DNA of 32,000 nt from Acidothermus cellulolyticus 11B (GCF_000015025.1 NC_008578.1:660001-692000), one strand, 5' to 3'. Shown: positions 1,089 through 32,000, counted from the first letter of the stretch. Translations and numbers: made by a program. The notes: generated from the letters alone by a model not told the origin.

Positions 1089-1115
1089 ACAAACAAGGAG
1101 GAGACAAAGGAATAG

Positions 1116-1166
1116 ATGACTGTGCAGTCGAACTGTCTGGTAACAACGGAAAGGATAGGTCGGTAA
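1116..1166 (+). promoter_or_regulatory. Candidate 16-codon upstream ORF in the AT-rich junction before the GH48 gene
   Basis: AAGGAGGAG (1095-1103) and AAAGGAA precede ATG 1116. The peptide is MTVQSNCLVTTERIGR, and its TAA at 1164-66 ends 2 nt before the GH48 ATG at 1169. Confidence 0.25.
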
Positions 1167-1168
1167 AT

Positions 1169-4100
1169 ATGCCAGGATTACGACGGCGACTCCGCGCCGG
1201 TATCGTCTCGGCGGCGGCGTTGGGGTCGCTGGTTAGCGGGCTCGTTGCCGTCGCACCAGTCGCGCACGCGGCGGTGACTCTCAAAGCGCAGTATAAGAAC
1301 AATGATTCGGCGCCGAGTGACAACCAGATCAAACCGGGTCTCCAGTTGGTGAATACCGGGTCGTCGTCGGTGGATTTGTCGACGGTGACGGTGCGGTACT
1401 GGTTCACCCGGGATGGTGGGTCGTCGACACTGGTGTACAACTGTGACTGGGCGGCGATGGGGTGTGGGAATATCCGCGCCTCGTTCGGCTCGGTGAACCC
1501 GGCGACGCCGACGGCGGACACCTACCTGCAGTTGTCGTTCACTGGTGGAACGTTGGCCGCTGGTGGGTCGACGGGTGAGATTCAAAACCGGGTGAATAAG
1601 AGTGACTGGTCGAACTTTGATGAGACCAATGACTACTCGTATGGGACGAACACCACCTTCCAGGACTGGACGAAGGTGACGGTGTACGTCAACGGCGTGT
1701 TGGTCTGGGGGACCGAACCGTCCGGAGCGACGGCGTCTCCATCCGCGTCGGCGACGCCCAGCCCGTCCAGTTCACCGACCACGAGTCCGAGTTCGTCCCC
1801 GTCGCCGAGCAGCAGCCCGACGCCGACACCGAGCAGCTCGTCGCCGCCCCCGTCGTCCAACGACCCGTACATCCAGCGGTTCCTCACGATGTACAACAAG
1901 ATTCACGACCCAGCGAACGGCTACTTCAGCCCGCAGGGAATTCCCTACCACTCGGTAGAAACGCTCATCGTTGAGGCACCGGACTACGGGCACGAGACAA
2001 CTTCGGAGGCGTACAGCTTCTGGCTCTGGCTCGAAGCGACGTACGGCGCAGTGACCGGCAACTGGACGCCGTTCAACAACGCCTGGACGACGATGGAAAC
2101 GTACATGATCCCGCAGCACGCGGACCAGCCGAACAACGCGTCGTACAACCCCAACAGCCCGGCGTCGTACGCTCCGGAAGAGCCGCTGCCCAGCATGTAC
2201 CCGGTTGCCATCGACAGCAGCGTGCCGGTTGGGCACGACCCGCTCGCCGCCGAATTGCAGTCGACGTACGGCACTCCGGACATTTACGGCATGCACTGGC
2301 TGGCCGACGTTGACAACATCTACGGATACGGCGACAGCCCCGGCGGTGGTTGCGAACTCGGTCCTTCCGCTAAGGGCGTCTCCTACATCAACACATTCCA
2401 GCGCGGCTCGCAGGAGTCCGTCTGGGAGACGGTCACCCAGCCGACGTGCGACAACGGCAAGTACGGTGGGGCGCACGGCTACGTCGACCTGTTCATCCAG
2501 GGTTCGACGCCGCCGCAGTGGAAGTACACCGATGCCCCGGACGCCGACGCCCGTGCCGTCCAGGCTGCGTACTGGGCCTACACCTGGGCATCGGCGCAGG
2601 GCAAGGCAAGCGCGATTGCCCCGACGATCGCCAAGGCGGCCAAACTCGGCGACTACCTGCGGTACTCGCTCTTTGACAAGTACTTCAAGCAGGTCGGCAA
2701 CTGCTACCCGGCCAGCTCCTGCCCTGGAGCAACCGGACGCCAGAGCGAGACCTACCTGATCGGCTGGTACTACGCCTGGGGCGGCTCAAGCCAAGGCTGG
2801 GCCTGGCGCATTGGTGACGGCGCCGCGCACTTCGGCTACCAGAATCCGCTTGCCGCGTGGGCGATGTCGAACGTGACACCGCTCATTCCGCTCTCGCCCA
2901 CGGCAAAGAGCGACTGGGCGGCGAGCTTGCAGCGCCAGCTGGAGTTCTACCAGTGGTTGCAATCCGCGGAAGGAGCCATTGCGGGCGGCGCCACCAACAG
3001 CTGGAACGGCAATTACGGGACCCCGCCGGCCGGAGACTCGACCTTCTACGGCATGGCGTACGACTGGGAGCCGGTCTACCACGACCCGCCGAGCAACAAC
3101 TGGTTCGGCTTCCAGGCGTGGTCCATGGAACGGGTTGCCGAGTACTACTACGTCACCGGCGACCCGAAGGCCAAGGCGCTGCTCGACAAGTGGGTCGCAT
3201 GGGTGAAGCCGAATGTCACCACCGGTGCCTCATGGTCGATTCCGTCGAATTTGTCCTGGAGCGGCCAACCGGATACCTGGAATCCGAGCAACCCAGGAAC
3301 GAATGCCAACCTGCACGTGACCATCACGTCGTCCGGGCAGGACGTCGGTGTTGCCGCGGCGCTCGCGAAGACACTCGAGTACTACGCGGCAAAATCCGGC
3401 GATACGGCCTCGCGCGACCTCGCGAAGGGATTGCTCGACTCCATCTGGAACAACGACCAGGACAGCCTCGGTGTGAGCACACCGGAGACGCGGACCGACT
3501 ACTCTCGGTTCACTCAGGTGTACGACCCGACGACTGGTGACGGCCTCTACATCCCGTCGGGTTGGACGGGGACCATGCCCAACGGTGACCAAATCAAGCC
3601 GGGTGCGACCTTCCTGAGCATCCGGTCCTGGTACACCAAGGATCCGCAGTGGTCGAAGGTGCAGGCGTACCTCAACGGCGGGCCTGCTCCGACGTTCAAC
3701 TACCACCGGTTCTGGGCGGAGTCCGACTTCGCGATGGCGAACGCCGATTTTGGCATGCTCTTCCCATCCGGGTCGCCCAGCCCGACCCCGAGCCCGACTC
3801 CGACGTCGTCCCCGAGCCCGACTCCGAGCAGCTCGCCGACGCCGTCGCCCAGCCCGTCACCGACCGGCGACACCACGCCGCCGAGCGTGCCGACGGGTCT
3901 TCAGGTCACCGGGACAACGACGTCGTCCGTGTCGCTCAGCTGGACCGCGTCCACCGACAACGTCGGCGTCGCGCACTACAACGTGTACCGAAACGGCACG
4001 CTGGTGGGTCAGCCGACAGCGACGTCGTTCACGGACACCGGCCTGGCTGCTGGCACGTCGTACACGTACACAGTGGCGGCCGTTGATGCGGCCGGTAACA

Positions 4101-4534
4101 CGTCGGCGCAGAGCTCGCCGGTGACAGCGACGACGGCATCGCCGTCGCCGAGCCCGTCGCCGAGCCCGACTCCGACGTCGTCCCCGAGCCCAACGCCGTC
4201 GCCGACACCGTCACCGACGTCCACCAGCGGCGCATCGTGCACTGCTACCTACGTTGTCAATAGCGACTGGGGTAGCGGCTTCACGACAACCGTGACCGTG
4301 ACGAACACCGGCACCAGGGCCACCAGTGGCTGGACGGTCACGTGGAGCTTTGCCGGTAATCAGACGGTCACCAACTACTGGAACACCGCGCTGACGCAAT
4401 CCGGAAAGTCGGTGACCGCAAAGAACCTGAGTTACAACAACGTCATCCAACCTGGTCAGTCGACGACCTTTGGATTCAACGGAAGTTACTCAGGAACAAA
4501 CACCGCGCCGACGCTCAGCTGCACGGCAAGCTGA
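1169..4534 (+). CDS. Secreted family-48 glycoside hydrolase (cellobiohydrolase/exoglucanase), architecture CBM3-GH48-Fn3-CBM2
   Basis: ORF track 1085..4534. I place the start at ATG 1169 (MPGLRRRLRAGIVSAAALGSLVSGLVAVAPVAHA, an RR-containing signal peptide, with GGAAAGGA upstream) rather than at TTG 1085. Domains: CBM3 at about 1274-1717 and a P/S/T linker. The catalytic region at about 1860-3770 reads DPYIQRFLTMYNKIHDPANGYFSPQGIPYHSVETLIVEAPDYGHETTSEAYSFWLWLEA..., as in GH48 enzymes. Then Fn3 at 3869-4135 and CBM2 at 4238-4534. Confidence 0.9.
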   Translation: MPGLRRRLRAGIVSAAALGSLVSGLVAVAPVAHAAVTLKAQYKNNDSAPSDNQIKPGLQLVNTGSSSVDLSTVTVRYWFTRDGGSSTLVYNCDWAAMGCGNIRASFGSVNPATPTADTYLQLSFTGGTLAAGGSTGEIQNRVNKSDWSNFDETNDYSYGTNTTFQDWTKVTVYVNGVLVWGTEPSGATASPSASATPSPSSSPTTSPSSSPSPSSSPTPTPSSSSPPPSSNDPYIQRFLTMYNKIHDPANGYFSPQGIPYHSVETLIVEAPDYGHETTSEAYSFWLWLEATYGAVTGNWTPFNNAWTTMETYMIPQHADQPNNASYNPNSPASYAPEEPLPSMYPVAIDSSVPVGHDPLAAELQSTYGTPDIYGMHWLADVDNIYGYGDSPGGGCELGPSAKGVSYINTFQRGSQESVWETVTQPTCDNGKYGGAHGYVDLFIQGSTPPQWKYTDAPDADARAVQAAYWAYTWASAQGKASAIAPTIAKAAKLGDYLRYSLFDKYFKQVGNCYPASSCPGATGRQSETYLIGWYYAWGGSSQGWAWRIGDGAAHFGYQNPLAAWAMSNVTPLIPLSPTAKSDWAASLQRQLEFYQWLQSAEGAIAGGATNSWNGNYGTPPAGDSTFYGMAYDWEPVYHDPPSNNWFGFQAWSMERVAEYYYVTGDPKAKALLDKWVAWVKPNVTTGASWSIPSNLSWSGQPDTWNPSNPGTNANLHVTITSSGQDVGVAAALAKTLEYYAAKSGDTASRDLAKGLLDSIWNNDQDSLGVSTPETRTDYSRFTQVYDPTTGDGLYIPSGWTGTMPNGDQIKPGATFLSIRSWYTKDPQWSKVQAYLNGGPAPTFNYHRFWAESDFAMANADFGMLFPSGSPSPTPSPTPTSSPSPTPSSSPTPSPSPSPTGDTTPPSVPTGLQVTGTTTSSVSLSWTASTDNVGVAHYNVYRNGTLVGQPTATSFTDTGLAAGTSYTYTVAAVDAAGNTSAQSSPVTATTASPSPSPSPSPTPTSSPSPTPSPTPSPTSTSGASCTATYVVNSDWGSGFTTTVTVTNTGTRATSGWTVTWSFAGNQTVTNYWNTALTQSGKSVTAKNLSYNNVIQPGQSTTFGFNGSYSGTNTAPTLSCTAS
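1289..1726 (+). repeat. CBM3 cassette, copy B (N-terminal module of the GH48 gene)
   Basis: By eye I found a single mismatch to copy A across the roughly 340 nt between ...accagatcaaaccggg and gggacgaacacc. The flanks diverge. Confidence 0.9.
4238..4534 (+). repeat. CBM2 cassette, copy B (GH48), synonymously diverged
   Basis: Same length and a closely similar protein, but with many third-position differences (C-ending codons) from the other three copies in its 5' two-thirds. Confidence 0.85.
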
Positions 4535-4551
4535 TCTCGGCTCAACCACTA

Positions 4552-4590
4552 GGGGTAGCGGCCGTCCATCCCCTCGGCGGCCGCTACCCC
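4552..4590 (+). terminator. Stem-loop terminator candidate after the GH48 gene
   Basis: Perfect 13-bp inverted repeat GGGGTAGCGGCCG (4552-4564) / CGGCCGCTACCCC (4578-4590) with a 13-nt loop, 18 nt after the stop. There is no U-tract, which is common in high-GC actinobacteria. Confidence 0.6.
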
Positions 4591-4720
4591 AACGGGGTAC
4601 GACCCGTCCGTCGGTGCGGTCCGTCGATCGCTTCGGCCGCGCGTCGTTTGCACGCTGACGGCTGCGACGGCGGGTTCGTAGGAGCCTTGCTGAGCGACGG
4701 AGGGCCGGAATGGGTTGTAT

Positions 4721-4735
4721 TCGGTGGCGCACCGA
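4721..4735. promoter_or_regulatory. Palindrome TCGGTG-GCG-CACCGA upstream of the GH74 gene (possible operator)
   Basis: Perfect 6-bp arms about 70 nt upstream of ATG 4806. A related CGGTG-N7-CACCG lies about 30 nt upstream of the GH12 ATG (about 9083-9099). Confidence 0.25.
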
Positions 4736-4805
4736 GTGATAACCGCGGAACGCAATCGCCGTGCGCAGCGTCATCGCCGTCCACTCATACGGAGAAGTGA
4801 TCACG

Positions 4806-8702
<3,897 letters not shown>

Positions 8703-8731
8703 CCCACCAGGAGGCAGCGGAAAAATCACGG

Positions 8732-8765
8732 CCGCGCTCGGCTGTCCTGGTGGCCGAGCGTGCGG
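8732..8765 (+). terminator. Stem-loop terminator candidate after the GH74 gene
   Basis: CCGCGCTCGGC ... GCCGAGCG(T)GCGG inverted repeat, about 11 bp with one bulge and a 10-nt loop, 30 nt after the stop. Confidence 0.45.
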
Positions 8766-9116
8766 GAGTCGTCAGACCTTCGCGCATTCCGTGGCGATCG
8801 ACGGGAGACCGTGCCACGTAAGGCGGTCCTCCACTGATCGCCGGTGACCACACGGTGCTGCGGGAGCGAGAACATTGCTCTGGTCGATAGCCGGTTGTCG
8901 GTCGATTGGCGTACGGGCTTCGCCGGACGGTACGAATCGCGCGTCCGTTTGGCTACACCGGATAGGACCATCCGGCTCTTTACGCCTCGTAATGGCATTC
9001 TCACACTGAGTTAATAGGAGCAGGTAGGCCGACGCAGGCAAGCTCCTGCAGGCTCCTCGCCGTCCCCGAATGCGACCGGGGCCGGTGTCAGAGGCACCGT
9101 CCGAGAGGAGCAGATC

Positions 9117-10328
9117 ATGCTAGTGCTCAGGGCGCCGCGATGGCGAGTGGTCATCACGGCAGCCGCAGTGGGGATCGCGGCCGCCGGAATACTTGTGACA
9201 AGTCACTCCGCCTATGGTGCAACGACATCAACGTGTTCACCTACCGCCGTGGTGAGTGTGGCCGGTGACGAATACCGGGTGCAGGCCAATGAGTGGAATT
9301 CGTCGGCCCAACAATGCCTCACCATTGACACGTCAACGGGCGCCTGGTCAGTCAGCACGGCGAATTTCAATCTTGCGACCAACGGAGCGCCGGCGACGTA
9401 TCCGTCGATTTACAAGGGTTGCCACTGGGGCAACTGCACGACAGCCAATGTCGGGATGCCGATTCAGGTCAGCAAGATTGGTTCGGCTGTGACGTCGTGG
9501 AGTACGACGCAGGTGTCGTCGGGCGCGTATGACGTGGCCTACGACATTTGGACGAACAGCACCCCGACGACCTCTGGTCAGCCGAATGGCACAGAGGTGA
9601 TGATTTGGTTGAATTCGCGGGGTGGGGTGCAGCCGTTCGGGTCGCAGACGGCGACGGGTGTGACGGTCGCTGGTCACACGTGGAACGTCTGGCAGGGCCA
9701 GCAGACGTCCTGGAAGATTATTTCCTACGTCCTGACCCCTGGTGCGACGTCGATCAGCAATCTGGATTTGAAGGCGATTCTCGCGGACGCTGCTGCGCGC
9801 GGCTCGCTCAACACCTCCGATTACCTCATCGATGTTGAGGCCGGGTTTGAGATCTGGCAAGGTGGTCAGGGCCTGGGTAGTAACTCGTTCAGCGTCTCCG
9901 TGACGAGCGGCACGTCCAGCCCGACACCGACACCGTCTCCAAGCCCATCCCCGAGCCCCGCGCCCAGCCCGTCCCCGAGCCCGAGCCCAACGCCCACGTC
10001 CAGCCCGACATCGTCGTCTGGTGGTGTTGGGTGCAAGGCTGCCTATGCGGTTAGTAATGATTGGGGTTCTGGGTTTACGGCGACGGTGACGGTGACAAAT
10101 ACCGGGAGCCGGGCGACGAGCGGGTGGACGGTGGCGTGGTCGTTTGGTGGGAATCAGACGGTCACGAACTACTGGAACACTGCGTTGACCCAATCAGGTA
10201 AGTCGGTGACGGCGACGAACCTGAGCTACAACAACGTGATCCAACCGGGTCAGTCGACCACCTTCGGGTTCAACGCCAACTACACCGGCAGTAACACCCC
10301 ACCCACACTCACCTGCACCGCCAGCTGA
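9117..10328 (+). CDS. Secreted family-12 endoglucanase with C-terminal CBM2
   Basis: ATG 9117 is preceded by GAGAGGAG at a 6-nt spacing. The signal peptide is MLVLRAPRWRVVITAAAVGIAAAGILVTSHSAYG. The catalytic region has YRVQANEWNS, GTEVMIWLN (E-x-M-I-W nucleophile motif) and VEAGFEIWQGG (acid/base Glu motif), as in GH12. Then a P/S/T linker and CBM2 at 10032-10328. Confidence 0.88.
   Translation: MLVLRAPRWRVVITAAAVGIAAAGILVTSHSAYGATTSTCSPTAVVSVAGDEYRVQANEWNSSAQQCLTIDTSTGAWSVSTANFNLATNGAPATYPSIYKGCHWGNCTTANVGMPIQVSKIGSAVTSWSTTQVSSGAYDVAYDIWTNSTPTTSGQPNGTEVMIWLNSRGGVQPFGSQTATGVTVAGHTWNVWQGQQTSWKIISYVLTPGATSISNLDLKAILADAAARGSLNTSDYLIDVEAGFEIWQGGQGLGSNSFSVSVTSGTSSPTPTPSPSPSPSPAPSPSPSPSPTPTSSPTSSSGGVGCKAAYAVSNDWGSGFTATVTVTNTGSRATSGWTVAWSFGGNQTVTNYWNTALTQSGKSVTATNLSYNNVIQPGQSTTFGFNANYTGSNTPPTLTCTAS
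10032..10328 (+). repeat. CBM2 cassette, copy D (GH12)
   Basis: The core is near-identical to copies A and C. The 5' 25 nt and the 3' end differ. Confidence 0.9.
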
Positions 10329-10520: not shown

Positions 10521-12074
10521 CTATGCGGGTTGTGGGGAGCCAGGCAGGACCTGGCTCCCCACTCCCGCGAGAGTGACCCGGTTGCGGCCGGCTGATTTCG
10601 ATTGATAGAGGGCGGCGTCGGCAGCCGAAAGAATGTGATCCGGTGATCCGCCATGCAGGGGGAAGGTCGCGACCCCGAGGCTCACCGTAACGCGCGGTTC
10701 GGCGTCAAGACCGAAAATTCGGCGGCGAAGATTCTCCGCTGCGGTGGCAGCGCCGGCGAGATCGGTGTCCGGCAGCACAACGACGAATTCCTCCCCGCCG
10801 TACCGGGCGACGAGGTCAGAGCTCCGGCACCCCTGCTGGAGTGCGCGGGCAACCCGCTGGAGCGTCTGGTCGCCGACTTGATGTCCGAACGTGTCATTGA
10901 TGTGCTTGAAATGGTCGATGTCGACCATGACGACGGATATCGGTTGTGCCGCCCGACTCGCTTGAGCGAACATCCGGTCGAGATTCTCTTCGAGAGTACG
11001 CCGATTCGCTACTCCGGTGAGCATGTCAGTCGCGGCAAGCAATGTGATCTGCTCGAGCAGCCAGCTGTTGGCCAGCGCGAGCGCTGTTTGCGACGCGTAA
11101 CGTTCCAGCATTGCGACGACGCGCCGGTCAACCCGCGAACCGAAACGGGCATTGTGCTCGGCCACCAGTACGCCGTCCACGTTGTTGCCGGCTGACATGG
11201 GGACGAGGAGGAGGCGCTGGGCCCCGGGAAAGCTGGCCGCAAGCCATCGATCCCGGTGTCGGTCGATATGCCCCAGCCGCCACGTCCGCCGTTCGCGGCG
11301 AACCGATTGAATAGAGCGGTCTTCCGCGGGTGACAGTCGGTTCGGTGTCGTCTTGACCGAGGCCAGGATGACGTCGCCCGGGCCGCTCTTGACGACGATT
11401 GCCGCTCGAGGTGCGAGAAAGTCGTCGTGCACCGCTTCGACAAGCACGCGACCGACGTCGGCGGGATGGAGAGCTTCCTCCAAGCGCTGAGAAAGTCGAG
11501 CCAGCCCAAGAAGATCGTAGTTGCGGCGGCGCAACTCGCGTTCGTTCACGGAGGCGAACGCGGCGGTCGCCAGCGTGACCAGCCATACCGCGGCGACGAA
11601 AGCGCCCACCTCCGCCCCGGTCGAGTGGTGCGGAGAATGGAGCACCCCCGCCCTCAGGTATTGATAGACGACGAAGGCAAGCAGGGAATGCCAGACCGCG
11701 ATTTTCAAGCCGGTGCGAAAGGATGCCAGCAGCGTAACCGTTACGGCGTGCACCAGAACGAGGGTGACCTGGGGAGACACGTATCCGGTTGTGGCATAGC
11801 TGGTGATCGCCAGATATATCCCGTCGATGACGAGCGACGCGCTGAAGACCGTGAGTATCGTTCGCCGTGACAGTCGTGCGGCGTACGCGGTCGGCGCTGT
11901 CACCGCGAGATATCCGGCCGTGAATCCCGCGAGCGAGACAAGCGGCAGGCCTCGATATTGCGGGACGGCGTACCACAGCAGCACCATCACCACACCGAGG
12001 CCATACCGACACAGCTGGGTAGTCCGGAGCCGTTCGCTGAGCGGCACCAAGTCGATGTCCTGTGTTCGTGCCAT
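10521..12074 (-). CDS. Membrane diguanylate cyclase: about 6 TM helices, a GAF-like domain and a GGDEF domain (GGEEF active site, RxxD I-site)
   Basis: 517-aa ORF with an ATG start. The N-terminal half is hydrophobic helices (VVMVLLWYAV..., LAGFTAGYLAV..., VFSASLVIDGIYLAI..., and others). The centre is GAF-like (LLLVPMSAGNNVDGVLVAEHN...). The C-terminus reads DMLTGVANRR...VVMVDIDHFKHINDTFGHQVGD...RSSDLVARYGGEEFVVVLP, with RSSD at the canonical I-site spacing before GGEEF. Confidence 0.9.
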   Translation of the reverse strand: MARTQDIDLVPLSERLRTTQLCRYGLGVVMVLLWYAVPQYRGLPLVSLAGFTAGYLAVTAPTAYAARLSRRTILTVFSASLVIDGIYLAITSYATTGYVSPQVTLVLVHAVTVTLLASFRTGLKIAVWHSLLAFVVYQYLRAGVLHSPHHSTGAEVGAFVAAVWLVTLATAAFASVNERELRRRNYDLLGLARLSQRLEEALHPADVGRVLVEAVHDDFLAPRAAIVVKSGPGDVILASVKTTPNRLSPAEDRSIQSVRRERRTWRLGHIDRHRDRWLAASFPGAQRLLLVPMSAGNNVDGVLVAEHNARFGSRVDRRVVAMLERYASQTALALANSWLLEQITLLAATDMLTGVANRRTLEENLDRMFAQASRAAQPISVVMVDIDHFKHINDTFGHQVGDQTLQRVARALQQGCRSSDLVARYGGEEFVVVLPDTDLAGAATAAENLRRRIFGLDAEPRVTVSLGVATFPLHGGSPDHILSAADAALYQSKSAGRNRVTLAGVGSQVLPGSPQPA

Positions 12075-26215: not shown

Positions 26216-28246
26216 GTGACCGACATCAGCACCGCAATGCCCACCGTTTCCGGCGAGAATTCCTCTCCTTCCGGCACCAGCGACGAGAGCCGTGGTGGTG
26301 CGCGCCGCCGCAAGGCTGCCGAGAGCGGCACATCGTCGCTGTCCGCCATGGTGCTTTCGGAATTGCAGGCGCTGGCCGCCAGTCTGGGAATTACCGGGAT
26401 TGCGCGGATGCGTAAGGGCGAATTGATCGAAGCAATTCGCCAGCGGCAGGGTGGTTCGGGCGCCGCCGCTGGAGGCTCCCCGGCCGGGAGTGATGCCGGC
26501 GGCGAAAGCCCCGGCGAGACGCCCGCGGCGCGGACGACGGTAAGCCGCTCACGCGGGCGGCGGGCGGTGGTTCCCGCCCTGCAGACGACACCCACGCTCG
26601 ACGTCGAGGTTCCCGTGCAGTCGACGGCTGCAGCTCCGGCTGGTTCGCCGCTCGAAATCTCTCCGGGTACGGCGGAGACCGCTCAGCCACCGGCCGCCCG
26701 CGCCGGCGACGGTCAGATGCAGCGTCGCGCCGGCCGGTTCGGCGGCCGCAACGCCACGGGTGCAGCGGGCGGAGGAGCCGGCGCGAGCCCGAGTCAGCCG
26801 GCTGGTTTCGGGCCGGCGAACGGGGCCGCGGCGGTCTCAGCCCCGACGGCAGGGCCGGGCCTGGGTCGGGAGGCAGCGCAGCGCGGCGCTCCGGCGGGCA
26901 ACGGGAGCCGCGTGGCCGGCGGTCAGGCGGGCAGCCCGGCGGAAACCGGCGGCAACGGCAATGGAACCGTGAGCAACGGTGCGGAACGTCGCCGGGAGGA
27001 CGAGGAATTCGCCGACATGGGCGGCCGTCGCCGGCGCGGCCGCTTCCGCGAACGCGGCGGACGGCTGCGGGTGCGGGAACGGTCGGATTACGAGCCGGCT
27101 GTTTCCGAGGACGACGTCCTGGTGCCGATCGCCGGAATTCTTGACGTGCTGGACAATTACGCATTCGTGCGTACGTCCGGATACCTGCCCGGGCCGAATG
27201 ATGTGTACGTCTCGTTGGCCCAGGTGCGCCGGTATGGCTTGCGCAAGGGCGATGCGATCACCGGAATGGTTCGCCAGCCGCGCGAAGGGGAACGGCGGGA
27301 GAAATTCAACCCGCTGGTGCGGCTGGACACCGTGAACGGCATGGATCCGGAGAGCGCCCGAAACCGAGTGGAATTCAGCAAGCTCACTCCGCTGTATCCG
27401 CAAGAGCGGTTGCGGTTGGAGACGGAGCCTCAGCAGATCACCACGCGCATCATCGACCTCATCGCACCGATCGGCAAAGGCCAGCGCGGTCTCATCGTCT
27501 CGCCGCCCAAGGCGGGCAAGACGATGGTGCTCCAAGCAATCGCGAACGCCATTACGCGGAACAATCCGGAGTGCCACCTCATCGTCGTGCTCGTCGACGA
27601 GCGGCCGGAGGAAGTCACCGACATGCAACGCTCGGTGAAGGGCGAGGTTATTTCGTCGACGTTCGACCGTCCGGCGGAAGACCACACGATGGTCGCGGAG
27701 CTGTCCATTGAGCGGGCGAAGCGACTTGTCGAGCTCGGTCACGACGTCGTCATCCTGCTCGACTCCATCACCCGCTTGGGCCGCGCGTACAACACCGCGG
27801 CGCCGGCGTCCGGGCGTATTCTCTCCGGTGGGGTCGACTCCGCTGCGCTGTATCCGCCGAAGAAATTCTTCGGCGCGGCCCGCAACATTGAGAACGGCGG
27901 TTCGCTCACTATCATTGCCACGGCGTTGGTCGAAACCGGTTCCCGCGGCGACGAGGTCATCTTCGAAGAATTCAAGGGAACCGGCAACATGGAGCTCAAG
28001 CTCGACCGGAAATTCGCTGACAAGCGCATTTTCCCGGCGGTCGACATCAACGCGTCCGGCACCCGGAAAGAAGAAATCCTGCTCTCCCCGGAGGAACTCC
28101 AGATCGTCTGGCGGTTGCGGCGGGTGCTTCATGCCCTCGACCCCCAGCAAGCCCTTGAGGTGCTCATCGAGAAAATGCGGCAGACCCGCAGCAACGCGGA
28201 GTTCCTCGTCCAGGTGCAGAAGACGATGCCGATGCCCTCGGAGTGA
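26216..28246 (+). CDS. rho: Transcription termination factor Rho with a long actinobacterial Arg/Gly/Ala-rich N-terminal insertion
   Basis: GTG 26216 immediately follows an in-frame TGA, giving (M)TDISTAM... It has the N-terminal helix bundle [28 protein letters not shown], an approximately 200-aa low-complexity insert and an OB/CSD-like segment [27 protein letters not shown]. The Walker A motif is SPPKAGKT, followed by [14 protein letters not shown] and [15 protein letters not shown]. Confidence 0.95.
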
Positions 28247-28428
28247 TGCCGGCCTGGTGTGCGCGGGCTTGGCCGACGCCGTCTCGGCCGGGCGTACGAG
28301 GAGGCGGCTAGTCCGTTCGACACACCGGATTGGGTCGCTCAGGCGCTCGAGTCGCGGCGCGATCCGCCGAGTATGTTCTCGTACCGTCCAGCGTTTCGAG
28401 GCCCGCGTGGGGGCTACGGGAGCACCGC

Positions 28429-29202
28429 ATGAACGTCCTCGCCATTGGGGCGCACCCCGATGACATCGAACTGGGCTGCGCCGGCGCCCTCCTTCGACAT
28501 GTCGCGGTCGGTGACAAGGTCACCCTGCTCGTGATGACCACCGGCGAGCGGGGGCCGCAGGACTCCGTCTCGCGTGTCCTCGAACAGGAGAATGCCGCGG
28601 CGCGCCTCGGGGCCGAGCTGATTTGGGGCGGTTTCCCGGACGGCGCGATCCCGCACAGCCGAGAGACGGTGACCTTCATCGACTCCGTCATTGCCGCCGT
28701 CGGCGCGGAGGTGCTCTACACGCACGGTCAGCACGACACCCATCAAGACCACGTGGCGACCGCCCTCTGTTCGCTCTCCGCCGCGCGGCGCCTCAACCGG
28801 GTGCTCTGCTACCAATCGCCGTCCGCCACCGCGTTCAACCCGGTCGTCTACGTCGACATCGAAGACACCTTGCGGGGCAAGCTCGAGGCGCTCGCTTGTC
28901 ACCGCTCGCAGGTCGAGCGGTGCGAGCTCGTTGATCTAGAAGCGGTCGAGGCCGGCGCCCGGTTCTGGGGTCATCAAGCCCGGATGCGGTACGCCGAGGC
29001 GTTCGAGGTGCCCCGGTTCGTCTGGGACATCACCGGTGGCGCGTCGGCGGTACGCCGGCTCGAGAGCGCAGCGGCGGCCGGTGAGGCGGCCGCTGATCGG
29101 GTCGGCGTCCGGGACTTCGAGCTTGTCGACGGCGGCGGTGCGGGCGAGCCTGTCCGGCGTACCGGGACATCGGTGTACCTGGTGGGTGGCCGCCGTCCGT
29201 GA
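28429..29202 (+). CDS. PIG-L/LmbE-family zinc-dependent N-acetylglucosaminyl deacetylase
   Basis: ORF track 28330..29202. ATG 28429 is preceded by GGGAG and gives MNVLAIGAHPDDIELGCAG (AHPDDxE motif). It also has THGQHDTHQDH (HxDH motif) and ...ACHRSQ. Confidence 0.85.
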   Translation: MNVLAIGAHPDDIELGCAGALLRHVAVGDKVTLLVMTTGERGPQDSVSRVLEQENAAARLGAELIWGGFPDGAIPHSRETVTFIDSVIAAVGAEVLYTHGQHDTHQDHVATALCSLSAARRLNRVLCYQSPSATAFNPVVYVDIEDTLRGKLEALACHRSQVERCELVDLEAVEAGARFWGHQARMRYAEAFEVPRFVWDITGGASAVRRLESAAAAGEAAADRVGVRDFELVDGGGAGEPVRRTGTSVYLVGGRRP

Positions 29203-30614
29203 CCGCCCCGCCACTCGCCGGCTCGTTCCGGGGACTCGCGGCGTCCGATTCCTCGGTCAGCGGCGTGCCGTGGACGTTCATCGTGCTGGCCGGGCTGATC
29301 AGCGCGGCCGTCGGCATTCTCGGCCCTGATCGGGCGATCTTTCTCGGCGTCCTCGTCATCAACCTCGTCTTCCTCGTCTTCTTCCTCCGCCATGTCGCCT
29401 TCGCGGCTGCGGCGGCCCGATGGGCGCCGACGGATCTGTACGAGAGCCCGGAGGTGCCCAGCGAAGACCTTCCGACGGTGAGCGTGCTCGTCGCGTGCCA
29501 CAACGAGGAGAGCGTCGTACCCGGGCTGATCCGCGGCCTGGTCGCCCTGCACTACCCGAGATCCCGCCTCGAAATTCTGATCGTCAACGACGGGTCCAGT
29601 GATCGCACGGGTGAATTGCTTGATCAGCTGACCGCCGGCATCCGGCACATGCGGGTGATTCATCGACCGGCCGGCGCCGGCGGCGGCAAATCCGGTGCGC
29701 TCAACGCCGCGCTGGCGGAAGCGAACGGGGAAATCGTCGTCGTCTTCGACGCCGACCACATCCCGCGCCGCAACGTCATCCACCGGCTGGTCCGTCACTT
29801 TCGCGACCCCACCGTGGCCGCCGTCCAAGGCCGGTGCATCGTGCGGAATTCCGTGCAATCCACCCTCGCCCGCTCGATTGCCATCGACTATTTCTCCGGC
29901 TACCTCGTGAACGAATACGGTCGGCAGGCGCTTTTCGGGCTACCGGCGTACGGCGGAGCCAATTGTGCGGTCCGGACCGCTCTGCTGCGGCAATTCGGCG
30001 GCTGGAATGTCAACAGCGTGACCGAAGACACCGATATCACGTTGCGGCTGGTCTTGGCCGGTTATCGCGTGCGGTACGACATCACCGCGGTGGACACCGA
30101 GGAAGGAGCGACCACGTTGGCGCGGTTCGTCCGGCAGCGATACCGCTGGGCCCGCGGCCACCAGCAGGTATGGCGGGACTATCGCCGCGGCGTGTGGCGG
30201 TGCCCGCACCTCACCCTCGGGCAGAAGATCGAGACGACCCTGTTTCTCCTCGTCTACCACGTGCCTGTCTTCTGCACCCTGACGCTCGTCCTCACCCTGC
30301 TGCGCCTTGCCGGCATCGGGCCGCACGTGAGTGTGGTCGAACTGCTGCCCCTCGCCGCCCTGCTCTTCGCCGGCCCGTTCTGCGAACTCGCGGTCGGCCT
30401 GCTGGTCGGCCGGGCTCCGCGCCGGGCCGCCTGGTCGGTGGCCTGGATGACCCCCCTGTTCGTCGTTTTCATGCTCGTCTGCACCCGGGCGTGGATCGAC
30501 GGGCTCCTTGGCCGGCCCTACACCTGGGTGAAGACGAAGCGGTCCCAGTGGAGCGCGCTCGCCGGCCGCGAGGAGATCGCGGACCGCGGACCGCTCGCCG
30601 AGGAGCGGCTGTGA
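29199..30614 (+). CDS. Integral-membrane family-2 glycosyltransferase of the processive synthase type (D, DxD, TED, QxxRW)
   Basis: GTG 29199 overlaps the PIG-L stop (GTGA); GTG 29265 is an alternative start. It has two N-terminal TM helices. The motifs are VSVLVACHNEE, ILIVNDGSSD, VVVFDADH, SVTEDTDITLRL and RQRYRWARGH. At least 3 C-terminal TM helices follow. Confidence 0.88.
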   Translation: MTAPPLAGSFRGLAASDSSVSGVPWTFIVLAGLISAAVGILGPDRAIFLGVLVINLVFLVFFLRHVAFAAAAARWAPTDLYESPEVPSEDLPTVSVLVACHNEESVVPGLIRGLVALHYPRSRLEILIVNDGSSDRTGELLDQLTAGIRHMRVIHRPAGAGGGKSGALNAALAEANGEIVVVFDADHIPRRNVIHRLVRHFRDPTVAAVQGRCIVRNSVQSTLARSIAIDYFSGYLVNEYGRQALFGLPAYGGANCAVRTALLRQFGGWNVNSVTEDTDITLRLVLAGYRVRYDITAVDTEEGATTLARFVRQRYRWARGHQQVWRDYRRGVWRCPHLTLGQKIETTLFLLVYHVPVFCTLTLVLTLLRLAGIGPHVSVVELLPLAALLFAGPFCELAVGLLVGRAPRRAAWSVAWMTPLFVVFMLVCTRAWIDGLLGRPYTWVKTKRSQWSALAGREEIADRGPLAEERL

Positions 30615-31144
30615 TCCGCCGCCGCGCCGTCATCGCCGGGCTGCTGGCGGCCGCCTTGGTGGTGGCTTTCGGCGGTTTTCTCCTGCTCTCCGACCCGCTC
30701 CGGGCGCTCGAGAGCCGGCTGGTGCTCGACGTCCTCCGGCCCGGGCAGCGGGTGACCCTCGTTGGTGACCACTATTTCCAGGTCCTGCCCGCCCACCACA
30801 CCCCGTTCCGGGCGCAGCTGACGCCGTTCTGCTCCTCGCTCGTACCGGTGCTCGCCCTCGCGGCGATCGCGGCGTTCGTCGTCCACGGGCACTGGGTGCG
30901 GCGCAGCGCCGCGCTGCTCACGGCGGCAACCCTCGTCGTGATCTGCAATGTGCTCCGGATCGCCGCATCGCTCTGGGTCGGCCTGCAGGTCGGTGCACGG
31001 GGATTGGTGTTGTTCCACGACTGGGTGGGCACGCTCTTCGGCCTCGGTTACACGATGATCGGGTTTTTCCTCATGCTCTACCTGCTGCTGCCGAGGGCGA
31101 CGACACGGATTCCACGAGCGGCCCGGGTCAGCGATGTCCTCTGA
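30611..31144 (+). CDS. Small (177 aa) polytopic membrane protein of the exosortase/archaeosortase family (minimal core)
   Basis: GTG 30611 overlaps the GT2 stop (GTGA); this is the terminal part of track ORF 29834..31144. Hydrophobic helices carry TPFCSSL (Cys74), ICNVLRIAAS (N-x-x-R) and LFHDWVGTLFG (His136) in the order typical of exosortase catalytic motifs. The family assignment is from memory, not from a search. Confidence 0.65.
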   Translation: MIRRRAVIAGLLAAALVVAFGGFLLLSDPLRALESRLVLDVLRPGQRVTLVGDHYFQVLPAHHTPFRAQLTPFCSSLVPVLALAAIAAFVVHGHWVRRSAALLTAATLVVICNVLRIAASLWVGLQVGARGLVLFHDWVGTLFGLGYTMIGFFLMLYLLLPRATTRIPRAARVSDVL

Positions 31145-31203
31145 GGGCGTGGCCGCTGCCCAGCCGCGGCATGCGCCCGGAGGAGAGGTAAGGAGAGTAG
31201 CCG

Positions 31204-32000
31204 ATGGTGGATAACCTGCGGCTGCTTGCCATCCTGCTCGGCGTCGTCCTCATCGCGGCCGGCATCGGCTGGCGGACCGTCCGGTTCGCGCGGATTCGGC
31301 AGGGCATCCGCAGCGGCCTTGCGGACCCCGACCCTGCAGTGCGCATCGCCGCGGTGCGGCAGGCGGCCGAGCTCGGCTTGGCCAGCACGGCTCCGGCGCT
31401 GCTCCGCGCCGTCCGCGTCGAGACCGACCCGGCGGTCCGGGCGGCGGTCGTCGAGTGTGTCGCTGCTCATCAATGGGAACCGGCGTCCACTGCGGCGATC
31501 GTCGAGTTGCGGTTGTGGGCGAAGGCGTACGTCGGCGCACGCCCGGATCTCGCGCGATCACCGGTCCGGTCGGCTCCGCTGCTCGCCGGGGTGGCGGGGA
31601 CCGTGCCGGCGCCGTCCCTGCATCCTGTCCGCGAACACGAATTCCGGCGCCGGACCGCGACCGACCTGCACGTCGACGACGCCGCCGCGCTGGGGCCGCC
31701 GCCGGACGACGATCCGCTGGCCCGACTGCGGATTCTGGTCACCGGTGTCGGCGGTGCAGCCGGCGTCGCCGTCGTCCGGGCATTGCGGGCCGCCGGGCAC
31801 ACGGTGATTGGCGTGGACGCCGATCCGGACGCTGTGGGGATCCGGCTTGCCGATCACGGCCAAGCCGTGCCGCGAGCCGACGATCCGACGTACCTGACCG
31901 CGCTGATCCACGCTGCGACGCTGTTCGACGCCGAGCTGCTCGTGCCGACCGTCACCGAAGAATTGCCCGTTCTCATTGCCGGTGCAGGGTATTTGCGTGA
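31204..32000 (+). CDS. 5' part of a gene for a membrane-anchored HEAT-repeat protein fused to an ATP-grasp-type (pre-ATP-grasp Rossmann-like) domain; 3' end outside the window
   Basis: This third + frame is not in the ORF track because it has no stop before the window end. AGGAGAG lies 7 nt before ATG 31204. The protein has MVDNLRLLAILLGVVLIAAGIGW (TM helix) and DPDPAVRIAAVRQAAELG...ETDPAVRAAVVECV (HEAT/PBS-lyase-like repeats). RILVTGVGGAAGVAVVRALRAAGHTVIGVDADPDAVGIRLADHGQAVPRADDPTYLTALIHAATLFDAELLVPTVTEELPVL resembles the N-terminal module of ATP-grasp ligases found in polysaccharide loci. Confidence 0.55.
   Translation, partial: MVDNLRLLAILLGVVLIAAGIGWRTVRFARIRQGIRSGLADPDPAVRIAAVRQAAELGLASTAPALLRAVRVETDPAVRAAVVECVAAHQWEPASTAAIVELRLWAKAYVGARPDLARSPVRSAPLLAGVAGTVPAPSLHPVREHEFRRRTATDLHVDDAAALGPPPDDDPLARLRILVTGVGGAAGVAVVRALRAAGHTVIGVDADPDAVGIRLADHGQAVPRADDPTYLTALIHAATLFDAELLVPTVTEELPVLIAGAGYLR

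Follow-up and report, generated by a model that had tools for sequence, protein, structure and literature searches.

In Gram-negative bacteria, the exosortase of the PEP-CTERM/XrtA (EpsH) system, an enzyme with a Cys/Arg/His set, is encoded in a glycan-synthesis locus and is suspected to link proteins to EPS. Its targets carry a tripartite C-terminal signal comprised of a Pro-containing motif, a transmembrane (TM) helix and an Arg cluster. The loci often hold deacetylases, FemAB-like or ligase-type amide-forming enzymes, and glycosyltransferases. The short-form exosortases XrtS, XrtR, XrtX, XrtH and XrtK (NF033767, NF012138, NF046081, TIGR04177 and TIGR04287, respectively) have about 155-170 residues and the catalytic signature TIGR04178. 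The XrtG system of Firmicutes consists of XrtG, a Firmicu-CTERM protein and two XrtG-associated GT2s, and thus places a Gram-positive exosortase by a GT2 and a dedicated target. In GPI-type anchoring, a transpeptidase removes the C-terminal hydrophobic signal and the new C-terminus is joined to the amine of a membrane-bound acceptor; eukaryotic PIG-L acts on the cytoplasmic face, where it de-N-acetylates the GlcNAc-lipid. A glycosyltransferase step followed by PIG-L or another de-N-acetylase and by N-reacylation occurs in mycothiol, bacillithiol, Nod factor, tunicamycin and teicoplanin biosynthesis.

The window analysed here, 32,000 nucleotides of the Acidothermus cellulolyticus 11B genome, ends within a gene cassette located behind rho (Table 1). 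Genes 1 and 2 overlap by GTGA at 29199-29202, genes 2 and 3 by GTGA at 30611-30614, and the gene 4 ATG is 59 nt past the gene 3 stop. A first-pass annotation of the window had described translational coupling of the first three genes and a separate ribosome-binding site (RBS) for gene 4; both are present exactly where it had placed them, as are the GT2 and PIG-L motifs and all its other sequence features. Its domain calls for all four genes, a "stripped-down exosortase" included, hold in the profile HMM searches that it had proposed as a check, where the exosortase signature is passed and GT2, PIG-L and HEAT/ATP-grasp are supported. It had also advised reading past position 32000. Contig L001, identical to the window over 3223 bp (0 mismatches), continues from gene 4 into wecB, encoding a UDP-GlcNAc 2-epimerase (TIGR00236, 260 against a cutoff of 210), a HAD-IA hydrolase gene and then rpmE. 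The four-gene operon originally proposed is the conserved core of a unit that has six genes in this genome, Acel_0634-0639: PIG-L, PgaC/NodC-like GT2, exosortase, HEAT-ATP-grasp, WecB and HAD.

Table 1. Features of the cassette and its upstream flank, in window coordinates
Feature	Position	Strand	Remark
rho	26216-28246		182-nt gap before gene 1 ATG
Gene 1 RBS, GGGAG	28418-28422	+	6 nt upstream of ATG; direct sequence reading
Gene 1, PIG-L/LmbE-family de-N-acetylase, 257 aa	28429-29202	+	presumably Acel_0634
Gene 2, membrane GT2 synthase, 471 aa	29199-30614	+	Acel_0635
Gene 3 RBS, GAGGAG	30600-30605	+	inside gene 2 end, 5 nt before GTG; direct sequence reading
Gene 3, short-form exosortase-family protein, 177 aa	30611-31144	+	Acel_0636
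Gene 4 RBS, AAGGAGAG	31190-31197	+	6 nt before ATG; direct sequence reading
Gene 4, HEAT-ATP-grasp	31204-32000	+	presumably Acel_0637; codons 1-265 of 484, window stops within gene

With a gene 3 profile, 79 related loci were collected from other genomes of Actinomycetota. The complete six-gene set is found in 61 of them, in several actinobacterial classes, and most of the others are truncated at the end of a contig. The order GT2-Xrt-(HEAT)ATP-grasp-WecB-HAD is invariable; this repetition of gene set and order indicates that the arrangement is not due to chance. A minimal form, found in Acidimicrobiia, comprises only the target, GT2, PIG-L, Xrt and HEAT/ATP-grasp. Because just 23 loci adjoin rho or rpmE, the cassette is independent of rho. 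The survey, another of the checks proposed, bears out the earlier view that the cassette was inserted into a conserved block: it lies between rho and rpmE here and elsewhere in most other lineages.

Gene 3 is a member of the exosortase superfamily with an intact Cys/Arg/His set. It passes the exosortase/archaeosortase signature TIGR04178 (30.7, cutoff 23), as do all 10 sampled members of its family, and is labelled "exosortase/archaeosortase family protein" in RefSeq. Cys74 (30830-30832), Asn113, Arg116 (30956-30958) and His136 (31016-31018) are invariant in the family alignment and lie near the outer membrane face. The protein has four TM helices (residues 7-25, 73-91, 100-118 and 142-160) with both termini in the cytoplasm. 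The C-terminus is assigned to this side on the grounds of its fusion, in other genomes, to an enzyme that uses ATP, and the cytoplasmic tail contains the invariant sequence PRAARVSDVL. The AF2 model has a pLDDT of 88, and dN/dS values of 0.11-0.26 indicate purifying selection. Gene 3 aligns with the short-form exosortase XrtS from end to end (residues 11-156 on model positions 3-152 of 155), but scores 49.5 against a cutoff of 145. No named Xrt class of NCBIfam is reached by gene 3 or by any of the 10 sampled relatives, all class cutoffs being far higher, and the literature searched describes neither fusion of short-form exosortases to ATP-grasp nor their partnership with PIG-L, GT2 and WecB. 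Identity with XrtG was rejected, as gene 3 has no match to TIGR03110, the GT2 scores 62 bits against the TIGR03111 cutoff of 364, and the accessory genes and target tail motif differ.

The gene 1 product has the motifs AHPDD at residue 8 and HQDH at residue 105 and scores 77 bits on PF02585 (PIG-L; cutoff 28). It is cytoplasmic, with neither signal peptide nor TM helix in a TM scan, and its C-terminal ~50 residues are not conserved. Its PDB relatives are TT1542, BshB and diacetylchitobiose deacetylase. It reaches no thiol-pathway equivalog cutoff in NCBIfam, the best score being 86 against a cutoff of 182 for BshB1; Mca scores 25 against 277 and MshB 18 against 224. PIG-L genes accompany 69 of the 79 loci; none is found within 10 kb at three Acidimicrobiaceae loci (L036, L044, L046), nor at L040 and L037, the last of which stops at a contig edge.

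Gene 2 contains D131, DAD184-186 (29748-29756), TED275-277 (30021-30029) and QRYRW313-317 (30135-30149), with two N-terminal and three to four C-terminal TM helices. Pfam GT2 families score 85-109 bits, NodC 82 bits and CelA 101 bits; the best PDB match is BcsA. PgaC_IcaA, the best NCBIfam match, is near full length (152 bits, E 2e-44), with a far higher cutoff of 422, and the automatic name in UniProt and JGI is monoglucosyl-diacylglycerol synthase (diacylglycerol glucosyltransferase). The protein is equally compatible with a polymer synthase, as in the PgaC/IcaA model, and with a lipid glycosyltransferase. A GT2 is encoded in 78 of the 79 loci, each time immediately upstream of the gene 3 homologue.

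The gene 4 product begins with a TM helix (residues 5-23, 31216-31272), followed by a cytoplasmic HEAT-like adaptor (residues ~35-110, 31306-31533, motif QWEP...LRLWA) and an ATP-grasp ligase part with the motifs WIVKPRFGRGSR and VVEANPRF. The part within the window matches HEAT_2 (35.8, cutoff 27.7) and PylC-like_N (30.4, cutoff 27); the full protein, read from L001, matches ATP-grasp_3 (51.6, cutoff 23.2), ATPgrasp_Ter (43.9) and a PRK12767-like model (160 bits). The ATP-grasp motifs are intact, which favours the predicted ligase competence. Of the loci, 42 have the HEAT-like domain fused to ATP-grasp and 15 have it fused to Xrt; it forms a protein of its own in 17, and 3 loci carry a fusion of all three. 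Among these fusions are one uninterrupted ORF of Geodermatophilus obscurus DSM 43162 and the database proteins P0179, P0189 and P0217. These varied fusions tie the membrane enzyme to the cytoplasmic ligase. The recurrent exosortase/HEAT-like adaptor/ATP-grasp fusion is one of the two new results of this analysis.

The other is a set of proteins with a shared tail that adjoin the cassette. At 62 of the 79 loci, inside the cassette or within ~200 bp of it, lie genes for secreted proteins that fall into three or more unrelated families; their ORFs were taken from stop-to-stop translations, and signal peptides were recognised by visual inspection and in one AF2 model. In 42 loci they belong to a new family of ~175-195 residues with a signal peptide, a beta-sandwich and a C-terminal helix, often in 2-3 tandem copies. 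Another 15 loci have choice-of-anchor P proteins (NF040603, 118-120 bits, cutoff 27), and 5 have other targets. Choice-of-anchor domains are defined by their occurrence on surface proteins whose sorting signals are exchangeable. The tails share [VLM]-P-x(1-2)-G, then a TM helix and an Arg cluster, and Pro with Gly one or two residues on directly precedes the helix in 58 of 80 tabulated tails. The order of elements is that of PEP-CTERM proteins, but the motif is not PEP; the cassette further differs from the XrtA system in its monoderm host, in an exosortase of four rather than about eight TM helices, in a single synthase-type GT2 instead of Wzx/Wzy machinery, and in the cytoplasmic PIG-L and physically coupled ATP-grasp. 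No adjacent target is found in the window, in the L001 extension or in the closest relatives (L003, L005, L009, L017). Among the matches of profile searches with the two main target families, none is named as Acidothermus; this is weak evidence of absence, as many of them have no organism attached. Targets of A. cellulolyticus 11B, if any, are not adjacent to the cassette.

It could be argued that these neighbours are ordinary membrane-anchored proteins or LPXTG-like sortase substrates, the apparent signal being a generic TM helix with a stop-transfer Arg cluster. One target weakly matches Gram_pos_anchor (13.4) and another MYXO-CTERM (15.1), both with a cutoff of 20, a Catenulispora protein is automatically named an LPXTG-motif anchor in UniRef, and tails in Geodermatophilaceae read LP[AE][DE]G, superficially like LPXTG, so that a housekeeping sortase may process this subset. 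However, no curated sorting-domain model reaches its cutoff on the tails, the near-invariant Thr of LPXTG is absent while the Pro and Gly are retained, and adjacency to the cassette extends over distant lineages and unrelated mature domains, which makes such an explanation very improbable.

The enzymes alone would fit two other schemes, each of which we consider unlikely. The operon might produce a PNAG-like exopolysaccharide for a biofilm matrix, with gene 3 as a small GT2 partner comparable to PgaD/IcaD, with PIG-L, ATP-grasp and HAD tailoring the polymer, and with no protein sorting, at least in Acidothermus. PgaC/IcaA is the best-scoring characterised model for the GT2 and shares with it the 2 + 3-4 TM helices and every processive-synthase motif (D/DxD/TED/QxxRW); a small membrane protein is encoded directly downstream and translationally coupled, just as icaD is directly downstream of icaA, and the clade of the window has no adjacent target. 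Yet PgaD/IcaD are missing, WecB implies ManNAc, and known PNAG systems rely on secreted CE4 deacetylases (PgaB/IcaB), whereas the PIG-L here is cytoplasmic. The family-wide invariance of Cys, Arg and His, the purifying selection on gene 3 and the sorting-type tails of the neighbours also speak against a mere synthase partner. The two are not exclusive, as an exosortase docked on the synthase could transfer proteins to the chain as it emerges. Alternatively, following the logic of mycothiol (MshA/A2/B/C), bacillithiol (BshA/B/C) and Nod factor (NodC/B/A) synthesis, GT2 would transfer HexNAc to a lipid or phosphorylated acceptor, HAD would dephosphorylate, PIG-L de-acetylate and ATP-grasp add an amino acid; the resulting membrane aminoglycolipid, thiol or signal would be an end in itself, and the exosortase homologue would be non-proteolytic, acting in flipping or scaffolding. 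MshA, MshA2, MshB and MshC are likewise a GT, a phosphatase, a PIG-L protein and an ATP-dependent ligase, PIG-L is also the deacetylase of bacillithiol synthesis, and the membrane GT2 NodC shares the motifs of the gene 2 product. The top rank of BshB1 among the equivalogs, though below cutoff, and the diacylglycerol glucosyltransferase name of the GT2 agree with this scheme, and a membrane-tethered ligase suits a lipid substrate. Against it, the thiol-pathway cutoffs are not approached, the place of the ATP-grasp ligase is taken in those pathways by a Cys-tRNA-synthetase-like enzyme, BshC or NodA, and they contain no exosortase or sorting-signal proteins, while here the catalytic triad is invariant and such proteins lie adjacent. 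Its glycolipid half is compatible with protein sorting, the glycolipid then being the acceptor.

The sugar had been proposed to be GlcNAc/GlcN; since WecB makes UDP-ManNAc available, GlcNAc is not obligatory. In the C. jejuni HS:2 capsule, Cj1438 (GT2 + ATP-grasp, the latter Cj1438C) and the phosphatase Cj1435 edit the growing glycan on the cytoplasmic face (PMC11800379). The cassette likewise combines a GT2 and an ATP-grasp amide ligase with a phosphatase, but in C. jejuni a uronic-acid carboxylate is amidated with a phospho-amine, whereas no dehydrogenase is encoded here. The presence of PIG-L instead suggests a sugar amine as the partner of the ligase.

Under protein sorting onto a glycoconjugate, WecB would supply UDP-ManNAc beside UDP-GlcNAc, and the GT2 would build a HexNAc glycolipid, a short oligomer or a PNAG-like chain at the inner leaflet, from which PIG-L would remove an N-acetyl group in the cytoplasm. 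The ATP-grasp enzyme, held to the membrane both by its TM helix and through docking of its HEAT domain to the exosortase tail, would re-acylate the resulting amine, using an amino acid or a phosphorylated acid, and the HAD enzyme, whose role is a guess, would take off the phosphate. The exosortase would then cut Sec-exported targets at the motif just outside the C-terminal helix, and resolution of the Cys74 thioester onto the glycoconjugate would tether the protein to the envelope. A processive chain extruded during synthesis would, however, be out of reach of the cytoplasmic PIG-L and ATP-grasp except at its growing end. The chemistry of the product (polymer or glycolipid; GlcN or ManN) we only infer. 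GPI anchoring (PIG-A, PIG-L, GPI transamidase), archaeal ArtA/PGF-CTERM and bacterial rhombosortase lipid anchoring serve as analogies only: unlike in GPI anchoring, the glycosyltransferase is a GT2 and not a GT4 and the transpeptidase family is not GPI8, and the attachment chemistry of the cassette is drawn by analogy.

The first-pass annotation had seen an operon for a membrane polymer or glycolipid, which is better read as a protein sorting and acceptor-building module; it foresaw neither the cognate substrates nor the fused ligase. Its suggestion of a route not yet described agrees with our searches, in which no curated equivalog model and no paper was found to cover the cassette and the literature searched made no mention of the locus tags or the gene combination. 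On the sequence evidence, we consider it reasonably likely that the cassette encodes an exosortase system of Actinomycetota that is of the short-form type, has so far been assigned to no class and comes together with the enzymes for making its glycan or glycolipid partner. Surface proteins are probably tethered to a glycan or glycolipid by this uncharacterised route.

The cassette that follows rho in Acidothermus consists of six genes. The first-pass annotation had proposed a module of four plus-strand genes; these are real, and both their positions and the GTGA stop/start overlaps of genes 1 and 2 and of genes 2 and 3 were exactly recovered on re-reading, but the unit is larger. The Logan contig L001, which matches positions 28778-32000 of the window with 0 mismatches in 3223 bp, carries the locus past the window end through the remainder of gene 4, WecB (gene 5), a HAD-IA hydrolase (gene 6) and rpmE, so that the six-gene unit lies between rho and rpmE. 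By TIGR00236 (260 bits against an equivalog cutoff of 210), WecB is a non-hydrolysing UDP-GlcNAc 2-epimerase. The PIG-L, WecB and HAD proteins have no signal peptide and no TM helix. A promoter and terminator scan gave no signal separating the cassette genes above shuffled expectation, and an Rfam scan of the spacer between rho and gene 1 gave no riboswitch or leader. Rho itself has about 290 residues rich in Gly, Ala and Arg ahead of its conserved core, a long N-terminal region typical of actinobacterial Rho. At the other end of the window, the secreted cellulase cluster encodes a CBM3+CBM2 protein, a GH48 protein of 1149 aa and a GH74-like Sortilin/BNR protein of 1313 aa, each with CBM3, fn3 and CBM2, and a GH12 protein with CBM2. 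The cluster agrees with the source given by exact-sequence look-up, Acidothermus cellulolyticus 11B.

Features of the window, with the cassette genes numbered in order
Feature	Position	Strand	Remarks
Secreted cellulase cluster	162-10328	+	known Acidothermus cellulase island
GGDEF diguanylate cyclase	10521-12074	-	164 bits
ORF of 479 aa	12076-13515	-	no Pfam match at E<=1e-5
rho	26216-28246	+	676 aa
Gene 1, PIG-L deacetylase	28429-29202	+	ATG start 182 nt past rho stop; GGGAG 6 bases 5' of ATG
Gene 1, C-terminal ~50 residues (~205-257)	29040-29202	+	Ala/Gly/Arg-rich; without tblastn coverage in most related loci
Gene 2, GT2 synthase	29199-30614	+	Acel_0635 (exact-sequence look-up)
Gene 3, exosortase family	30611-31144	+	Acel_0636 (exact-sequence look-up); GAGGAG ahead of start
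Gene 3, cytoplasmic tail (residues ~162-177)	31096-31144	+	ends in PRAARVSDVL
Gene 4, HEAT-ATP-grasp ligase	31204 to beyond window end	+	preceded by AAGGAGAG

With a profile of gene 3 homologues, 79 related loci were retrieved from species-representative genomes. The carriers include Acidothermaceae, Frankiales and Sporichthyaceae MAGs, the genera Geodermatophilus, Blastococcus, Modestobacter and Trujillonella, Catenulispora, Pseudonocardia, Acidimicrobiia and one Solirubrobacteraceae MAG. All six genes were found by tblastn with the six proteins in 61 of these loci, and contig ends truncate most of the remaining 18. The order GT2, exosortase, (HEAT) ATP-grasp, WecB, HAD is fixed, while PIG-L is found either upstream or about 1 kb downstream. 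WecB and HAD are absent from three Acidimicrobiia loci, and the minimal form in that class consists of a target protein, GT2, PIG-L, exosortase and HEAT/ATP-grasp; the four genes singled out in the first-pass annotation are thus this minimal form minus its substrate. Three Acidimicrobiaceae loci (L036, L044 and L046) have no PIG-L within 10 kb and no detected target; L036 has MMPL and MFS transporter genes upstream. Two or three PIG-L paralogues surround a single cassette in L034, L065, L069 and L077. Rho or rpmE adjoins the cassette in only 23 of the 79 loci, and adjacency to rho is therefore a trait of Acidothermus, Sporichthyaceae and Frankiales rather than of the system; a functional meaning of this adjacency was rejected, since most copies of the cassette are located elsewhere.

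The four domain calls of the first-pass annotation are upheld by profile searches against the curated cutoffs of Pfam and NCBIfam. Gene 3, named "exosortase/archaeosortase family protein" in RefSeq, matches the exosortase/archaeosortase catalytic-region signature TIGR04178 with 30.7 bits against a cutoff of 23, and all ten family members sampled across the score range pass it as well (31-47 bits). Residues C74, N113, R116 (in NVLRI) and H136 (in FHDW) are invariant among 20 homologues at 55-84% identity, 16 of which are 177-178 aa long, and the Cys, Arg and His are kept in the Geodermatophilus and Acidimicrobiia homologues. Hydropathy and the positive-inside rule predict four TM helices with both termini inside, and the C-terminus is independently placed in the cytoplasm by its fusion to an ATP-using enzyme in other genomes; Cys74, Arg116 and His136 are therefore predicted to lie at the outer leaflet. 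The AF2 model (pLDDT 88) has a long TM1, a small three-stranded element and then three helices. The family is small, with 292 representatives at E<=1e-3 among 1.84 billion, and dN/dS of gene 3 within the Acidothermus-like clade is 0.11-0.26.

The relation of gene 3 to the named exosortases is distant. With four TM helices in 177 aa, it is excluded from the full-length EpsH architecture of eight TM helices, from which the short classes XrtS, XrtR and XrtK deviate in the same manner. PF09721 covers it only through the C-terminal third of the model (18.9 bits against 25.7), and no match to TIGR02602, the full-length EpsH model, was reported. The best class model is XrtS (NF033767), which gives 49.5 bits against a class cutoff of 145, and 20-39 bits, where it matches at all, for the sampled relatives. 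None of the ten sampled members passes XrtS, XrtR, XrtX, XrtH, XrtG or XrtA. XrtG, the class named in the first-pass annotation, was rejected for gene 3 (no TIGR03110 match at E<=0.1), as was the XrtG-associated GT2 for gene 2 (TIGR03111, 61.9 bits against a cutoff of 363.95). Sequence and fold searches of the PDB found no significant match of gene 3 to a solved structure. Judged from its signature and catalytic residues, gene 3 is a member of the exosortase superfamily that passes no class-level test.

Candidate substrates were found in the related loci by checking all ORFs for a hydrophobic helix near the C-terminus with a basic cluster behind it. All-against-all ORF clustering had given no additional gene conserved in every locus; single linkage had fused overlapping ORFs and so masked the target family, and only the tail scan brought that family to light. 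Proteins with the tripartite tail, read as stop-to-stop translations on contigs that lack annotation and in many cases belong to MAGs, adjoin the cassette in 62 of the 79 loci. The first target family, present in 42 loci by HMM and often in 2-3 tandem copies, immediately precedes PIG-L or sits between it and HAD. Its members are about 175-195 aa long, with a signal peptide, a beta-sandwich of about 110 residues with two invariant Cys and a tail in which C[AS]TKPV[PS]Q[VI]G or LP[AE][DE]GNG is followed by a TM helix and RPRR/RRRR. Neither this family nor the tail reaches the cutoff of any Pfam or NCBIfam model, PDB sequence and fold searches with the target gave no significant match, and the database homologues are called "hypothetical protein" where the source gives a name.

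In 15 other loci, among them those of Pseudonocardia, Catenulispora, a Mycobacteriales MAG and the Solirubrobacteraceae MAG, the first family is replaced by choice-of-anchor P proteins, several of which carry this name at NCBI. The Pseudonocardia and Solirubrobacteraceae targets score 118 and 120 bits with NF040603, against a subfamily cutoff of 27. The tail of this second family is [VM]P.GA[VI]GG, a TM helix and R[RK]RR; in L043, L053, L063 and other Catenulispora loci the choice-of-anchor P targets extend 15-40 Gly/Ser/Ala-rich cytoplasmic residues past the Arg cluster. In five further loci, different proteins bear a tail of this type. The target tails share [VLM]-P-x(1-2)-G, placed immediately ahead of a helix of about 20 residues and the Arg cluster. 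"Choice-of-anchor" domains are defined by their occurrence on surface proteins with interchangeable sorting signals. That choice-of-anchor P occurs with a new tail beside a putative new exosortase class argues more strongly than any other single finding for protein sorting by the gene 3 family.

HMM and tail scan detected no adjacent target in the window, in L001 or in the four closest loci, and two database profile searches with the target families gave no hit named Acidothermus among hits of which many are without organism name. The 1.5 kb insert between HAD and rpmE in the related locus L009 was rejected as a target because it encodes a beta-propeller-like protein instead; this is a 439-aa protein on the opposite strand (L009 13907-15226, minus), resembling by eye a repeat-rich beta-propeller.

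The ligase appears to be physically tied to the exosortase. Gene 4 (484 aa at full length, from L001) consists of a TM helix, a HEAT-like domain with the motif QWEP...LRLWA (HEAT_2, 35.8 bits against 27.7) and an ATP-grasp region (PylC-like_N, 30.4 against 27; ATP-grasp_3 PF02655, 51.6 against 23.2; PF15632, 43.9 against 29.1; PRK12767-like matches). Domain scores and the motifs of the ATP-binding Lys and the E-x-N Mg site, WIVKPRFGRGSR and VVEANPRF, identify it as a predicted ATP-grasp carboxylate-amine ligase, tethered by the one TM helix; the Arg cluster beside that helix places the enzyme on the cytoplasmic side. The HEAT-like domain is joined to ATP-grasp, as in the window, in 42 loci, is a separate gene in 17 (some of which may be frameshift artefacts), is joined to the exosortase C-terminus in 15 (Geodermatophilaceae) and, in 3, forms a single ORF with both exosortase and ATP-grasp. 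This triple fusion is an uninterrupted ORF in G. obscurus DSM 43162, and Exosortase_EpsH and ATP-grasp_3 are combined in database proteins of 696-804 aa. We read the pattern as Rosetta-stone evidence that exosortase, HEAT and ATP-grasp form one complex. The PRAARVSDVL tail of gene 3 is invariant where HEAT sits on ATP-grasp and is replaced by the direct HEAT fusion in Geodermatophilaceae; it may serve as a docking peptide. The 1118-aa database protein P0164 appears to carry two ATP-grasp-type modules downstream of its exosortase domain, with PylC-like_N at 462-543, ATP-grasp at 891-1072 and a Rossmann-like region between them at 785-860. Six gene 3 homologues of about 177 aa (P0007, P0027, P0034, P0036, P0095 and P0102) bear the JGI label 'carbamoyl-phosphate synthase large subunit', a name most likely transferred from the exosortase-ATP-grasp fusions.

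The two remaining enzymes of the original module have the motifs assigned to them, all at the exact positions. Gene 1 scores 77.2 bits with PIG-L (PF02585, gathering cutoff 28.2) and has metal-binding motifs AHPDD (residue 8) and HQDH (residue 105). Gene 2 scores 85-109 bits with GT2 families, and its motifs (D131, DAD184-186, TED275-277 and QRYRW313-317), flanked by 2 N-terminal and 3-4 C-terminal TM helices, identify it as a predicted synthase-type (processive) GT2, although non-processive lipid GT2s share the D/DxD/TED/QxxRW motifs. Its best characterised model is PgaC/IcaA (TIGR03937, 152 bits against an equivalog cutoff of 422). The UniProt automatic name is 'Beta-monoglucosyldiacylglycerol synthase' and a JGI cluster member is called '1,2-diacylglycerol 3-beta-glucosyltransferase'; these lipid-GT names are at odds with the PgaC-like best NCBIfam match. 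The GGDEF diguanylate cyclase lies in the same window as this GT2; synthase-type GT2s such as PgaCD and BcsA are controlled by c-di-GMP.

Gene adjacency and coupling would also be plausible in an exopolysaccharide operon of the PNAG type, in which gene 3 would be a PgaD/IcaD-like partner of the GT2. This reading is improbable, as it leaves unexplained the invariant Cys/Arg/His triad and the neighbouring candidate substrates; among the six cassette genes there is no PgaD/IcaD homologue and no CE4 domain. The sequence of a glycosyltransferase, a de-N-acetylase and an N-reacylation is known from mycothiol, bacillithiol, Nod factors, tunicamycin and teicoplanin, and a thiol- or Nod-like small-molecule or glycolipid pathway without protein sorting is a further alternative. 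It meets the same objection from the triad and the substrates, and no equivalog cutoff is approached: gene 1 was rejected as a bacillithiol deacetylase (BshB1, 86 against 182 bits; BshB2, 33 against 195) and as a mycothiol-type deacetylase (MshB, 18 against 224; Mca, 25 against 277). We regard such a pathway as unlikely. That the targets are ordinary anchored proteins or LPXTG-like substrates that happen to neighbour the cassette is very improbable, for their adjacency holds across lineages, the common Pro/Gly motif is without the Thr of LPXTG, and no model matches the tails.

The functions assigned across the cassette as a protein-sorting system are inferred from sequence. UDP-GlcNAc and UDP-ManNAc would feed the GT2, whose product would be a HexNAc-lipid, a short oligomer or a PNAG-like chain; PIG-L would then free an amine on this product, ATP-grasp would re-acylate it, HAD would strip the phosphate carried by the ligase co-substrate, and the exported glycoconjugate would take over the protein from the exosortase thioester. 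The acceptor of sortase A is the amine of the lipid II cross-bridge, and the substrates of rhombosortase and ArtA end on lipid. A precedent for the editing step is the capsule of C. jejuni, where Cj1438C (ATP-grasp) and Cj1435 (phosphatase) modify the chain on the cytoplasmic face as it grows (PMC11800379). As the acceptor we slightly favour a glycolipid or short glycan over a polymer, because editing in the cytoplasm is easier to reconcile with an oligosaccharide that is lipid-linked or released than with a co-translocated polymer, and because UniProt and JGI automatically name the GT2 a diacylglycerol glucosyltransferase.

More tentatively, and as a possibility that we hold to be less than probable, the cassette could be a bacterial counterpart of GPI anchoring, in which PIG-L is used, building an aminoglycolipid or glycan and then joining it to secreted proteins. 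GT2 would make a HexNAc-lipid on the inner leaflet, PIG-L would unmask its amine, as it does for GlcNAc-PI, and the exosortase-docked ATP-grasp would add an amino acid to that amine; once the product had been flipped, the mini-exosortase would remove the C-terminal helix of the target and join the target to the aminoglycolipid or glycan.

The PEP-CTERM/XrtA and XrtG systems combine an exosortase with dedicated C-terminal-signal proteins and glycan genes, and the present system would work in a similar way. It differs from them in its minimal enzyme of four TM helices, the new tail motif of the related loci, Gram-positive host, synthase-type GT2, cytoplasmic PIG-L and fused or docked ATP-grasp ligase. 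No description of it was found in NCBIfam release 20.0, Pfam or the literature searched: a search for exosortases with ATP-grasp, deacetylase and glycosyltransferase in Actinobacteria gave nothing relevant, a search for XrtS gave only unrelated XRTS physics papers, and no paper was found that mentions the locus tags Acel_0634-0639. The exosortase class, the C-terminal sorting signal and the target family thus appear to be new.

Exosortases were first described in 2006, and the attachment partner of their substrates is still obscure. The working models of a recent exosortase paper still have the substrates "possibly" linked to polysaccharide. The present cassette is unusually small and self-contained, with one synthase, one deacetylase, one exosortase-tied ligase and, in many genomes, 1-3 putative dedicated substrates, and its cultured Gram-positive carriers include Acidothermus, Geodermatophilus, Blastococcus, Modestobacter, Catenulispora and Pseudonocardia; the acceptor question can therefore be put to a direct test, with one small protein analysed by mass spectrometry. 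The analysis gives a candidate sorting signal and target family to proteins that current pipelines annotate as "hypothetical protein", and a function-level hypothesis to a gene set spread across soil Actinomycetota. If the analogy to GPI anchoring is true, a compact cassette of 5-7 genes would comprise a transpeptidase together with the complete pathway for its long-sought acceptor.
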